A DNA stretch of 38,853 bases from Candidatus Colicola coprequi (lineage in GTDB: Bacteria > Bacteroidota > Bacteroidia > Bacteroidales > Paludibacteraceae), in assembly GCA_018065765.1 (NCBI GenBank), contig JAGHSR010000070.1, positions 1-38,853 on the forward strand, read 5' to 3'. Of this stretch, positions 5,268 to 38,853 are shown in pieces. Numbering within the stretch: the stretch's first letter is position 1; every line of letters begins with the position of its first letter. The notes under the pieces were generated by a model. That model ran no database searches. It was not told the DNA's origin and worked only from the letters and a program-made list of their open reading frames with translations. The translations under genes were made by a program, and so were the position numbers.

Positions 5268-6211
5268 CTGTTCTTATTGACAAATATATTCCTTTTTTAG
5301 GGGATGTTCTTGCACCATACGCGGATGTCATTCGCCTTGCTCCAGAGGAGTTCACTCCGGAGTTGGTGCGTGATGCGGATGCATTGTTTGTTCGTACCCG
5401 CACACGTTGTGATGAGCATTTGCTCGGTGGTTCCCGAGTACGTTTTATCGCCACTGCCACGATCGGTTTTGACCATATTGATACTGTTTATTGTCGCGCG
5501 CACGATATATATTATGTGTCCTGTCCGGGCTGCAATGCGCAGGCCGTATGTGACTACATCAAGGAGGCTCTTCGTACTCTTGATTATCTTCACTCCGGCG
5601 TCACGTTAGGGATAGTCGGTGTGGGTCATGTAGGTCAATTGGTGTCTAAGATGGCGGTTTCTCATGGTATGGATATTCTTCTCAACGACCCGCCCTTGGG
5701 TATTGGCATAGGTTTGGACGAGTTGGCATGTCGAAGTGACGTCATCACTTTTCACACCCCGCTTACTATGTCGGGTGCATACCGCACCTACCATCTTTGC
5801 GACGATGTTTTGCTTCGTCGTATGCGGGCGGGTGCATTGGTCATCAACGCTGCCCGAGGGGGGATAGTAGATGAGACAGCGTTGTTGTATAGTAGTCATC
5901 CGTACGTGATTGACTGTTGGGAGAACGAACCGAATATCAACACATCGTTGCTGTCTTCTCCGTCGTGTCAATTAGCCAGTTACCACATTGCCGGTTACTC
6001 CATGCAGGGTAAGTTGAAGGCATCGCAGATGTGTTTGGATGCTTTTTGCACGTATTTTTGTCTTCCTATTTTGAAAATTCAAAATAATGTTGTACCTTTG
6101 TCGGCTGAATTGGGAGATACTGCTTCGGGATGGCTCACTCGTATTACGTCCGCGTTGCGCTATGCTCCTCAGGATTTTGAGTTACTTCGTAAACAATACA
6201 AACTAAGATAA
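5264..6211 (+). CDS. pdxB: 4-phosphoerythronate dehydrogenase-like D-2-hydroxyacid dehydrogenase
   Basis: The NAD-binding motif is GIVGVGHVG. The catalytic-type residues are [15 protein letters not shown] and YHIAGYS. The N-terminus (IDKYIPFL...[18 protein letters not shown]) is PdxB-like. A TTG start at 5264 overlaps the panC stop. At 315 aa it is shorter than E. coli PdxB. Confidence 0.7.
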
Positions 6212-7701
6212 TGGCAAATTTTCAAAAACTCACCTCTCGTGCGGAGGATTATTCAAAATGGTATAATGAACTTGTTGTGAAAGCAGATTTGGCAGAGCAG
6301 TCTGCTGTTCGTGGTTGTATGGTCATCAAGCCCTACGGATATGCTATTTGGGAGACTATCCAAGCTGAATTGGACCGTCGTTTCAAGGAGCAAGGTGTCA
6401 AGAACGCATATTTTCCTCTGCTCATTCCTAAGTCTTTTCTTAGTCGTGAAGCAGAGCATGTGGAAGGTTTTGCCAAAGAGTGTGCTGTAGTGACGCACCA
6501 TCGTCTGATGAATGATCCCGAAGGAAAGGGTGTGGTAGTAGATCCGAATGCAAGACTCGAAGAGGAGCTCATCATTCGTCCCACCTCGGAGACCATCATT
6601 TGGTCAACCTACAAGAACTGGATTTCCTCTTATCGTGATTTGCCTATTCTTTGCAACCAATGGTGTAATGTCATGCGCTGGGAGATGCGCACGCGTCTCT
6701 TCCTTCGTACAGCAGAATTCCTGTGGCAAGAGGGGCATACTGCACACGCCACCAAAGAGGAGGCTGAAAACTATGCCAAAACCATGTTGGATGTCTATGC
6801 TGACTTTGCAGAGAACGTGATGGCTATTCCTGTTGTCAAGGGAGTCAAATCTCCCAACGAGCGTTTTGCCGGAGCACTCAACACCTATTGCATTGAAGCC
6901 ATGATGCAGGACGGTAAGGCTCTTCAAGCCGGTACAAGTCACTTTTTGGGTCAGAACTTCGCCAAGTCGTTTGATGTACAGTTCCTGAGTAAAGAAAACA
7001 AATATGAATATGTTTGGGCTACATCGTGGGGTGTTTCCACCCGTTTGATGGGTGCGCTTATCATGACCCACAGCGATGACAACGGATTGGTTTTGCCACC
7101 AGCCTTGGCTCCTATTCAGGTTGTTTTTGTACCTATTTTCAAGACACAGGAACAGCTTGATGCTCTTCTTGCCAAGATGAATCCTATTTTGGACAACCCC
7201 AAAAAAGCCGGTATCCGTATTAAGGTAGATATTTCCGACAAAGCTACACCCGGATTTAAGTTTGCCGGCTACGAGCTCAAGGGTGTACCTGTCCGTTTGG
7301 CTATGGGTGGCCGTGATTTGGAGAACGGCACTATCGAGATTGCCCGTCGTGATACGCTCACCAAGGAAACGATTGCTCTTGAAGGTATCGAACAGGTGAT
7401 ACTCAACCTGCTGCAGGAGATTCAGAAGAACTGCTACCAAAAAGCACTTGCTTACCGTATTGCCAATACACGTGAGTGCAATTCCTACGAGGAGTTTAAG
7501 GAGGAAATCAAGAAAGGTGGTTTTTTGCTTTGCCACTGGGACGGTACTCCCGAGACAGAAGAGAAGATTAAAGACGAGACGAAAGCCACCATCCGTTGTA
7601 TTCCGTTGGAAGCACTTCCCGGCTACAAAGAGGAACCCGGTTTCTGCATGGTGACTGGCAAACCGAGCGCCAAGCGCGTAGTCTTCGCCATTTCCTACTA
7701 A
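6211..7701 (+). CDS. proS: Proline--tRNA ligase (archaeal/eukaryote-like type common in Bacteroidetes)
   Basis: The 496-aa product starts ...[32 protein letters not shown]. It also has [13 protein letters not shown] and [10 protein letters not shown] class II motifs. Confidence 0.93.
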
Positions 7702-7728
7702 GCATTGTGCATTCTGCATCTTGCATTT
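7702..7728. repeat. Four degenerate tandem heptamers with a TGCAT core
   Basis: The sequence GCATTG TGCATTC TGCATCT TGCATTT follows directly after the proS stop codon. Confidence 0.5.
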
Positions 7729-7789
7729 TTCCCTTGCTCTATGAGGGAATGATGAATTGATAAACCGATTAATTTAAAAAATAATAGAC

Positions 7790-36906: not shown

Positions 36907-37296
36907 GGGGATAACTGGTTTTGACAGCAGGTAGAATGGATGCGTAAGCATGCCGAGTATGAGTACCACTCGTTAATAGGACTCAGTCAATTTTAACTGG
37001 CAACAATAGTGTAGCTCTCGCTGCCTAACCGAAGTATAGTAGGTTAGCTTAATTTCGGCACTAGGTGCTGAATCGAGACATCGCTCCAAGCCCGGCCTCG
37101 CGGCTGAATGGATATAGCGGTGCGGGAATTGCGAGGATAGTTTTCATAGGCTGCGATATGGAAATGACAACTAAGCAGATAAGCTGTGTGTAGGTGGCTT
37201 GGGTTTTGCATGCGGTCGAAAATGAAGGCCAAGATAAGCATGTAGAAAGCGTATGTGTTCCTTGTTTGGACGCGGGTTCGAATCCCGCTATCTCCA
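36907..37296 (+). ncRNA. ssrA: tmRNA (transfer-messenger RNA), about 390 nt
   Basis: The 5' GGGGATA pairs with the 3' TATCTCC, followed by discriminator A. The tRNA-like T arm is GGACGCGGGTTCGAATCCCGC. The internal tag reading frame GGC AAC AAT AGT GTA GCT CTC GCT GCC TAA (36999-37028) encodes GNNSVALAA. Confidence 0.9.
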
Positions 37297-37337
37297 CTTT
37301 GTTGCGCATTATTTCGCGCTCTTGTTACCGGACGCTT

Positions 37338-37412
37338 TCTCGAGGGTCTCTCGACAGTCTCTCGACAGTCTCTCGAGGGTCGATCGACACTTGACCGACA
37401 CTTGACCGACAC
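37338..37412. repeat. Tandem array with 11-bp periodicity (7 units in three sequence classes)
   Basis: The units are TCTCGAGGGTC, TCTCGACAGTC, TCTCGACAGTC, TCTCGAGGGTC, GATCGACAC, TTGACCGACAC and TTGACCGACAC. Confidence 0.85.
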
Positions 37413-37416
37413 TTAT

Positions 37417-37971
37417 TCAATCGTTTTTAGCTGATTTTTGGATTCTCCATTTACTCACTGCATAGACGATAGTCAGCAGCAGGAGCGGGAGGATAGGACT
37501 GCCGATGGGTGAGTCACTACCCGGGTTGGCAGGGTCAAAGCCGGGGCCTTCGTCTTCATCACCATCGCCCAGCGCGCGTCGTGGTCCGACGCGGCGGTAC
37601 TGTGAGGCGGTGCTGAGTGCCTCTTCTGCCGATACGCCGCTACCTAAGGACATAGCCGAGACCGGCAGGGTGTATGCGTGGCGGAGATAGCCGTGCCCTG
37701 ATTGAGAAGAAAAAGTCGCCGATGTAGGTTGCATCGGCATGGGTTCTCCCCAGCCCTGTGAGGGGATGTTACCGGAAACTTCAAACAAGCGGTACCTGCT
37801 ATCGCTGGCGTTGTAGAAACGTGCATCGCCTCCGAACTGTGTATTACCGCTGTAGGGTGTATTAGACCAAGCCGGAAGGGAGAAACAGAATGCAAAATGC
37901 AAAATGCAAAATGCAAAAAGCAGGATGGAGAATTGAGAATGGAGAATGGAGAATGGAGAGTGGATTATCAT
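37417..37971 (-). CDS. Hypothetical small membrane-anchored protein (184 aa) with a repeat-encoded N-terminal hydrophobic segment and a C-terminal TM helix plus basic tail
   Basis: The ATG overlaps the upstream stop as ATGA. The N-terminus is MIIHSPFSILHSQFSILLFAFCILHFAFCFSLPAWS. The middle is rich in G/S/P/D. The C-terminus is SPILPLLLLTIVYAVSKWRIQKSAKND. The coding status is uncertain because this GC-rich stretch is open in several frames. Confidence 0.45.
   Translation of the reverse strand: MIIHSPFSILHSQFSILLFAFCILHFAFCFSLPAWSNTPYSGNTQFGGDARFYNASDSRYRLFEVSGNIPSQGWGEPMPMQPTSATFSSQSGHGYLRHAYTLPVSAMSLGSGVSAEEALSTASQYRRVGPRRALGDGDEDEGPGFDPANPGSDSPIGSPILPLLLLTIVYAVSKWRIQKSAKND
37889..37967. 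repeat. Two adjacent heptanucleotide tandem arrays
   Basis: On the + strand, AATGCAA occurs 4 times perfectly (37889-37916). It is followed by TGGAGAA, TTGAGAA, TGGAGAA, TGGAGAA, TGGAGAG and TGGATTA (37926-37967). Confidence 0.9.
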
Positions 37972-38853
37972 GGCAGTACGATTTTATGAACCCCGTTGTC
38001 GGTTACCACTATATAAATACCCGCGCGCACGTGTGAGGAGAGGGTTTTCGCATCGCCGATGCGTTGTCCGGTGACGGTATAAATGCCATTGGATGCGTTA
38101 GCAGTGCCATTGAGCACAGCAGGAGAGGAGGTAGGTGTCTCGTCATGAGTGCGGCAGATGGCTTGGATAGCAAGTCGGTTCTCTATGTTGGACACGTTGA
38201 ATGCGAATGTGTAGTTTTCGTAGAGGAGGTTGGTCACTTTGCCGGAAGCGTTGTCTATCAGGTAGATAGCCTCAAAATCCGCAGTCAAGTCGGCGGCGTG
38301 CTGCACAGAGACGGTCATTGTACCTGACTTAGCGCCGGTGATAATACCGATTGGCAGAGCCAGTTGTTTGGCGGACTGTTCGTCGAGTGCTTGGAAGGCG
38401 AGTGCTGTCTTGGGGTCAGCGGGTGCGTAGGAGTACAGTGACAGGTTCTCGCTGTCGCCGAACATCTTGCTCAGGTCGGCGTTGAAGTCGTATGCGGTAG
38501 TGAAGGCAGCGCCTAACAGGAAACCTGTGGAGGCTGTTTCAGCGCCCTGCTGAACGAGCAGGGTGAACGGAAATTCTGTTTTGCTTGTACGTTGCGGTGC
38601 GCGGCGTGGTGCAAGGGCACGTTGAGTTGTTTGGAACGTGAGGGTTCCTTCGCCTGCAGACTGCACGAAATAGGAGCAGAACGGATGGATGACCGCTTCC
38701 TCTACGCGTAACTGTTCGTACGAACGGAAACCGTTATTTGAGATGGTGACATAGCGGAAGCCATCGTTCTGAACCACATAACCGTTGTCATCGTCACCGA
38801 CTATGACACCGAGTTGCAACTCAGAGACATTGGGCAGATGGATAGCGCAGAGG
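37968..38853 (-). CDS. T9SS C-terminal-sorting-domain (type A-like) secreted protein, C-terminal part; the gene continues past the window end
   Basis: The frame is open to the window edge. The last ~70 aa (NGIYTVTGQRIGDAKTLSSHVRAGIYIVVTDNGVHKIVLP) match the T9SS CTD pattern GIY..G....L..GIYIV...G..KI. Confidence 0.7.
   Translation of the reverse strand, partial: LCAIHLPNVSELQLGVIVGDDDNGYVVQNDGFRYVTISNNGFRSYEQLRVEEAVIHPFCSYFVQSAGEGTLTFQTTQRALAPRRAPQRTSKTEFPFTLLVQQGAETASTGFLLGAAFTTAYDFNADLSKMFGDSENLSLYSYAPADPKTALAFQALDEQSAKQLALPIGIITGAKSGTMTVSVQHAADLTADFEAIYLIDNASGKVTNLLYENYTFAFNVSNIENRLAIQAICRTHDETPTSSPAVLNGTANASNGIYTVTGQRIGDAKTLSSHVRAGIYIVVTDNGVHKIVLP

Follow-up and report, generated by a model that had tools for sequence, protein, structure and literature searches.

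A heptanucleotide microsatellite in the leader region of a small mosaic gene of Candidatus Colicola coprequi

The small gene and its neighbourhood

The window analysed here, the whole 38,853-nucleotide stretch of Candidatus Colicola coprequi DNA (contig JAGHSR010000070.1), ends in two overlapping minus-strand genes, a large one that is cut by the contig end and a small one whose first codons are made of heptanucleotide repeats. A search of 5.8 billion protein clusters returned two relatives of the small, 184-aa protein, P0002 on the ENA contig L001 and P0003 on the Logan contig L002. The features of the locus are as follows.

37971..38853, minus strand: 3' portion of the upstream gene, cut by the end of the contig; its orthologs have 897-918 aa and an InlB B-repeat domain
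37968..37971, minus strand: ATGA overlap of the upstream TGA stop with the ATG start of the small ORF, recurring in related loci
37417..37971, minus strand: 184-aa ORF with repeat leader, low-complexity middle, conserved motif, C-terminal membrane helix and basic tail
37864..37971, minus strand: putative export signal, residues 1-36, ending ..PAWS before NTPYSG, placed by hydropathy and by the position of the homologs' signal peptides
37887..37963, minus strand: compound microsatellite with 11 heptanucleotide units, spanning codons 3-29, defined by its register, Tandem Repeats Finder and shuffles
37922..37963, minus strand: sub-block A, six CCATTCT-type units (3 perfect, 3 with one substitution each), encoding HSPFSIL HSQFSIL
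37887..37921, minus strand: sub-block B, five GCATTTT-type units, encoding LFAFCILHFAFC, the most hydrophobic stretch
37780..37979, minus strand: 5' cassette of about 200 nt, with 4 mismatches to L001 (98% identity), as against 48-72% identity in the flanks
37456..37494, minus strand: C-terminal transmembrane helix ILPLLLLTIVYAV, identical in the window, L001 and L002

A profile search of 1.84 billion representatives added the remote homologs P0004, P0005 and P0006 (34-40% identity), giving a family of five representatives. All homologs share one layout, in which an N-terminal signal peptide and a variable middle are followed by a conserved motif (GPRRALG..DE.EGPG[FY][DN]PA[ND]P..P[IL]G..LPL; GPRRALG..DEDEGPGFDPANPG..PIGSPILPL in the window protein), a C-terminal membrane helix and a basic tail. 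Neither Pfam nor NCBIfam gave a match to the 184-aa protein; the succession of motif, membrane helix and basic tail resembles a C-terminal sorting signal and matches no curated model of either collection. In JGI metagenome contigs, a protein scan with the family alignment gave 600 pattern matches, of which none was confirmed, and a DNA scan with the unique flank of the cassette gave one unrelated chance match (L121).

The ATG of the small ORF occupies 37971-37969 and the TGA of the upstream gene 37970-37968, an arrangement typical of translational coupling that was found in all five related loci fetched (L001, L002, L122, L123 and L124) as well as in the window. Given this overlap with the upstream surface-protein gene, coupled translation of the small gene is probable. 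The dN/dS values outside the 5' cassette were 0.36 for window-L001, 0.18 for window-L002 and 0.32 for L001-L002, and the indels among the three versions are in frame; the small ORF is thus a real gene under purifying selection. The initial annotation had placed the repeats inside a coding sequence, and both these dN/dS values (0.18-0.36) and the conserved ATGA start bear this out. Both the recurrence of ATGA in five of five related loci and the signal peptide found at this position in all homologs speak against its alternative of a fortuitous ORF start.

The designation of the upstream gene as a T9SS cargo gene is not established: the last 120 aa of its product reached only a sub-threshold TIGR04183 score (E=0.11, 12.5 bits; cut-off 23), and further domain scans gave no TIGR04183 match to it. 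The first gene of the cluster in L002 passes this model with 28.1 bits. On the other side of the small gene, a few bases past the stop of the 184-aa ORF, lie 11-nt tandem repeats (window 37338-37414, L001 6567-6657, L002 6561-6591), which read (AAGTGTCGRTC)x3 and then (GAGAGACTGTC)n on the minus strand. The window and L001 share 93-100% identity in these repeats, and just beyond them the resemblance to both relatives stops. A tmRNA gene (window 36907-37299, tag GNNSVALAA) ends about 32 nt from the end of the L001 homology, and the same gene cluster adjoins uvrB in L001 and 22-nt repeats in L002. Given these differing neighbours, the cluster sits in different genomic contexts, and its edge may be that of an island integrated at the tmRNA gene. 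Another intergenic spacer of the cluster is also repetitive, with 28-nt tandem units at L001 2295-2362 and, unlike these, 7.5 copies of the 8-nt ATCAACCA plus 27-nt units at L002 2203-2323.

A single heptanucleotide array in the leader region

Tandem Repeats Finder reported AATGCAA x4.9 at 37889-37922 (96% matches, score 61) and ATGGAGA x5.7 at 37925-37964 (90% matches, score 66), the top two period-7 arrays of the 38.9-kb window. Against dinucleotide-preserving shuffles, the dimer AATGCAAAATGCAA was observed 3 times with 0.02 expected, and TGGAGAATGGAGAA, allowing up to one mismatch, 4 times with 0.02 expected. The AATGCAA and TGGAGAA-like repeats of the initial annotation are therefore real and far beyond chance. 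Its view of the window as otherwise repeat-poor is not quite right, as 11-nt tandem repeats lie at 37338-37414 and a related GCATTYT x4 array at 7702-7729.

On the minus strand, a fixed 7-nt register runs from 37963 to 37887 through the units CCAcTCT, CCATTCT x3, CaATTCT, CCATcCT, GCtTTTT, GCATTTT x3 and GCATTcT, with the consensus [C/G]CATT[C/T]T. Since this one register is unbroken, with no spacer between the sub-blocks, what had been described as two back-to-back arrays is one compound microsatellite of 11 units; the repeats are as reported, and their separateness is not. The final unit, GCATTcT, lies in between the types of sub-blocks A and B. Five of the 11 units carry substitutions, and the perfect runs comprise 3 units of CCATTCT and 3-4 of GCATTTT, the higher count applying if the unit is written TTTTGCA (x4 in sub-block B, the AATGCAA x4 at 37889-37916 of the plus strand). 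The first base of the array lies 7 nt past the ATG, not directly at the upstream stop codon, where it had been placed. The array contains no stop codon in any frame, and its heptapeptides (PFSILHS, FCILHFA) are the same hydrophobic ones in every frame because 7 and 3 share no factor. The minus-strand translation, with MIIHSPFSILHSQFSILLFAFCILHFAFCFSLPAWS at the N-terminus, has the 7-aa peptide repeats that had been described.

Rfam and tRNA scans found only tmRNA and tRNA-Arg, with no match at the array, and a scan for promoters and terminators remained at chance level. Folding of the array region gave z = 0.18 with no RNA structure seen, and a structured RNA was rejected on this value. An assembly artefact was also rejected, because the independent assembly L001 has the same array.

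At the position of the repeats, P0003, P0004, P0005 and P0006 have ordinary leaders. The maximum Kyte-Doolittle value over 11 aa is 2.94 in the window protein (FSILLFAFCIL) as compared with 2.65-3.32 in these four homologs; a hydrophobic N-terminal h-region of the Sec type thus lies where the homologs have their signal peptides, and the repeats are, as had been noted, the only N-terminal hydrophobic signal-like segment of the protein. The positively charged n-region is lacking, with no Lys or Arg in residues 1-10 as against two in each homolog, and the leader is further atypical in having His within the hydrophobic stretch and a length of about 36 residues. On balance, the translated array is most likely an export signal, for which a cleavage site, read by eye, would fall after PAWS (A-W-S before NTPYSG).

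The uncharged n-region would also suit a different history, in which a microsatellite at the gene junction grew into the signal-peptide region, or took its place, and abolished export, so that the gene is decaying or starts downstream; TTG at codon 62 or ATG at codon 78 would then give a tail-anchored protein without a signal peptide. An open frame through a stop-free array is automatic, its phase being a 1 in 3 chance, and the two array alleles are not independent. Moreover, related units lie directly 3' of stop codons at non-coding junctions (window 7702-7729, L001 1193-1222), and TTTTGCA arrays elsewhere are mostly intergenic or in 5' leaders among the matches listed. However, the ATGA start is kept family-wide, the region from the array to codon 62 (NTPYSG..FYNAS..YRLFEVSGN) aligns in frame with the homologs and with L002, and the rest of the gene shows purifying selection in the array-bearing lineages. 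The hydrophobicity of the array also equals that of real leaders, and similar arrays lead bona fide exported proteins elsewhere. We consider such a loss of the leader quite unlikely and favour an exporting, repeat-built leader.

Mosaic alleles and the possibility of phase switching

The closest ortholog, L002, has no array and uses a conventional leader, MTSAPHLRARFAYRSLCVLTLVALMLTINPSLSYSQ, from the same ATG. Between the window and L002, identity is 96.8% in the upstream gene, over its final 887 nt as far as 37967; similarity is then absent across 37803-37966 and resumes with 92% identity over 37802-37391. L001 is more distant from the window than L002 is (79% identical overall), and L001 and L002 are 87-90% identical over the upstream 5 kb. 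Within the cassette, dS between the window and L001 is 0.055, as against 0.40 across the rest of the gene, and even a background divergence of 11% would leave a probability of 1e-6 for so few mismatches (at most four in 200 nt). The L001 array has 11 units with the same counts as in the window; of the four substitutions in the cassette, one falls in the array and a second in the unit that directly follows it. Conserved flanks, GTACTGCCATGAT and GCAGGTAYCG..GAAGTTTCCGG, border the cassette.

The small gene is mosaic: the L001 cassette is 98% identical between flanks of 48-72% and L002 lacks the array, so the cassette is a recombining allele. The repeat-built leader rides on this cassette of about 200 nt, which lineages have exchanged by recombination in the conserved flanks, and two leader alleles of the gene, one repeat-built and one conventional, coexist. 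A paralogous family with a shared leader, as in cassette-type antigenic variation, was rejected, the N-terminal 60 aa being present, among the 5.8 billion clusters, only in P0001 and P0002. Adjoining the cassette, the final 800 nt or so of the upstream InlB-B-repeat gene are 72% identical between L001 5215-6008 and L002 5212-6005 (window 37971-38760), compared with 87-90% in the preceding 5 kb, and form a local diversification hot spot.

Because a net change of 1 or 2 units truncates the product, a phase switch is mechanically possible. In simulations, a net change of one unit gave a product of 38 or 106 aa, whereas net changes of 0 or 3 units in either direction gave the full-length product, and sub-blocks A and B can compensate each other's frame. 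The initial annotation was thus right that a one-unit change shifts the frame and a three-unit change keeps it. It had also proposed an operating switch, that is, an active contingency locus at which slipped-strand mispairing frequently switches the small protein between ON and OFF, and this we regard as unlikely. The 7-nt unit is not divisible by 3 and lies in the 5' coding region (codons 3-29) of a probable envelope protein, and published analogues, Neisseria opa (PMC3960869) and Escherichia coli neuO (PMC13001214), work exactly in this way. A survey of simple sequence repeats (SSRs) in Haemophilus influenzae counts heptanucleotide tracts from 3 units up as candidates (PMC2651432), and an intergenic TTTTGCA array shared by L003 and L083, with a 42-nt left flank of 95% identity, has 4 units in one and 5 in the other. 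On the other hand, the tract is not a long homogeneous one, with five of 11 units substituted in the window and one more in L001, and such interrupted units look like the signature of a decaying tract rather than of one homogenised by slippage. SSR mutability climbs steeply with tract length (PMC3315296), and no more than 3-4 perfect units succeed one another here, as compared with the 3 to 53 units of neuO, 65.6% of whose 64 examined genomes are OFF (PMC13001214).

Comparison of the alleles also speaks against an operating switch. Despite the four cassette substitutions, both array alleles (n=2) have 11 of 11 units, and the nearest ortholog, L002, is without any array. Among the matches in the 5.8 billion clusters (the two relatives), no truncated, frameshifted or C-terminal-only product was found, and a search for OFF or variant junctions anchored in the upstream gene gave no match at E<=1e-10, the approximately 97% identical protein of L002 apparently not being indexed. 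The searched collections contain only three loci of the small gene, so stability rests on one comparison. The initial annotation had suggested comparing unit counts in relatives and had held that equal counts, or orthologs that lack the arrays and start at a downstream Met, would argue against switching: the counts are identical in L001, and L002 lacks the array but starts at the same ATG, a result of low power with three loci. Taken together, the evidence leans mildly against an active switch, and the array is probably a latent frameshift switch that behaves as a fairly stable, decaying microsatellite.

The resemblance to the two coding contingency systems is nonetheless close. Like the window array, the opa repeat has a unit length that 3 does not divide and occupies the 5' coding region, where it specifies a hydrophobic leader for an envelope protein; a change in the number of units puts the reading out of frame (PMC3960869). 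The opa repeat differs in its 5-nt unit (CTCTT), perfect tracts, switching rate of about 1e-3 per cell per generation (PMC3960869) and host of another phylum, whereas the window has a 7-nt unit, perfect runs of 3-4, interrupted units and no length variation in two alleles. In neuO, carried by the CUS-3 prophage of E. coli K1, a heptanucleotide (AAGACTC) in the 5' coding sequence is translated as heptapeptide repeats, and the full-length product is made only with a frame-keeping repeat number (PMC13001214). Unlike the window array, with its equal counts in two alleles, neuO varies in unit number over the range given above, with heterogeneity measured within cultures (PMC13001214), and its repeat peptide is hydrophilic and no export signal.

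Heptamer arrays elsewhere and interpretation

When 185,579 species-representative genomes were searched for (TTTTGCA)x3, at least 118 stretches contained it (L003-L120; 833 kb), compared with a calculated expectation of about 0.3 for a random 21-mer. BLAST of the window against these 118 showed no related locus among them. Among the matches listed, the arrays occur in Clostridia, Bacteroidales, Acidobacteriota, Planctomycetota, Cyanobacteria and other groups, and the 833 kb hold 282 period-7 arrays (158 of the query family and 124 of other heptamers), whereas period 6 accounts for 8 arrays and period 8 for 17; period 7 exceeds every other period more than 10-fold. By crude ORF calls on these matches, 36 of 127 arrays lie in the sense orientation in the 5' part of an ORF, 15 just upstream of one and 12 antisense at a 5' end. 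Many of the listed arrays have an inverted copy 20-60 nt away or adjoin an array of a different heptamer, and the inverted pairs in L018, L024, L032 and L090 would form hairpins with heptamer-repeat stems. Within the window, GCATTGT GCATTCT GCATCTT GCATTTT stands at 7702-7729 in the sense orientation, directly past the TAA of the ORF 6211..7701 and 60 nt ahead of the next ATG, and at L001 1193-1222 AATGCAA-type units follow a TAG, 20 nt ahead of the next ATG.

In L012, L013 and L062, from three other lineages, (TTTTGCA)3-5 encodes the hydrophobic leader core of three unrelated proteins: an HlyD-family lipoprotein, with the leader MRVILIFAFCILHFLTGC and a GGAGG ribosome-binding site, a NamZ muramidase and a TPR/SH3 protein; in L084, a TTTTGCA array makes an in-frame 7-aa insert just ahead of a T9SS sorting domain. 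Judging from these predicted products, leaders translated from such arrays occur outside the window too.

Among long SSRs (5-11 nt, as summarised there from Mrazek et al. 2007), heptanucleotides form the most frequent class in the majority of the genomes examined, and direct repeats of heptamers are concentrated immediately before start codons (PMC4679880). The intergenic heptamer direct repeats described there (TAACTGA; Beggiatoaceae, Cyanobacteria, Bacteroidetes) are like the window array in their period of 7, in adjoining arrays of different heptamers, in their position at gene junctions or just before starts, in their forward orientation and in their patchy phylogenetic spread (PMC4679880). 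The 7-nt units, the presence of several arrays and their location at gene junctions apply to the window (37887-37963, 7702-7729), and L001 has heptamer arrays at 1193-1222, 5341-5365 and 6013-6087. However, the described repeats are mostly non-coding, whereas the window array lies past the ATGA start, is translated in frame and has a different unit, [C/G]CATTYT. The H. influenzae hmw1A/hmw2A repeats are likewise heptanucleotide SSRs and set the level of a surface adhesin, but they lie in the promoter, about 100 bp upstream, have 13-38 units and grade transcription without a frame shift (PMC2651432). The window array is thus a coding SSR in a leader-peptide region, which is a known kind; less familiar is that a signal peptide built from a microsatellite coexists and recombines with one of the conventional sort.

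A role at the RNA level, of the kind proposed for the intergenic TAACTGA repeats, was also considered, in which the U-rich heptamers of the mRNA would bind a single-strand-binding protein (cold-shock or S1-like) and tune re-initiation at the ATGA. Forward heptamer direct repeats just before start codons are a described class, and CspB is reported on heptamer repeats with one protein per heptamer (PMC4679880); 5'-end arrays are mostly T-rich in the sense strand (roughly 51 vs 12 in the at least 118 loci, by crude ORF calls), and the RNA at the array is unstructured. The window array, however, sits past the start codon rather than before it, a class of binding protein rather than a named one is the candidate for it, and the TAACTGA model is itself hypothetical. 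The closest ortholog is without the array, so the array is dispensable. We consider this role very unlikely.

The overall best explanation, which we hold to be probable, is that of a partly degenerate 11-unit microsatellite, fixed in frame, that forms a repeat-built export leader on a recombining cassette and slips at a low rate. A partly degenerate heptanucleotide microsatellite (37887-37963, minus strand) would have become fixed in frame within the first 30 codons, where its T-rich coding-strand units yield stop-free hydrophobic heptapeptides in each frame. Since the heptapeptides have these properties in all frames, the array could supply the hydrophobic core of an N-terminal export signal, in place of the conventional signal peptide of L002 and of every remote homolog. 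The small gene would start at the ATG that overlaps the upstream stop and be translated by coupling, and the 5' cassette of about 200 nt with the array would be exchanged between lineages by homologous recombination in the conserved flanks. The tract would act as a latent frameshift switch, since a net slippage of one or two units would leave a truncated protein.

A broader generalization, which we regard as doubtful, is that T-rich GCATTYT/TTTTGCA microsatellites form a widespread, cross-phylum class that accumulates at the 5' ends of genes in the sense orientation and, as it encodes hydrophobic peptides without stop codons whatever the frame, has been co-opted time and again for signal-peptide cores, so that each such gene would have a built-in frameshift switch for a secreted or envelope protein. 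If true, the window locus would be one example, with a repeat-built leader swapped between lineages as a recombination cassette.

Phase variation in Bacteroidota is mostly ascribed to invertible promoters. If the tract slips, the locus would be a phase switch based on simple sequence repeats, in a lineage that has surface proteins of the T9SS type. Even if it is stable, a microsatellite would serve as signal peptide beside a conventional-leader allele of the same gene, and the two leader alleles would constitute a natural experiment in how little sequence information an export signal needs. The locus of the small gene also suggests that leaders are replaceable by recombination, and the occurrence of heptamer arrays at gene starts across phyla may be a pattern of wider interest.
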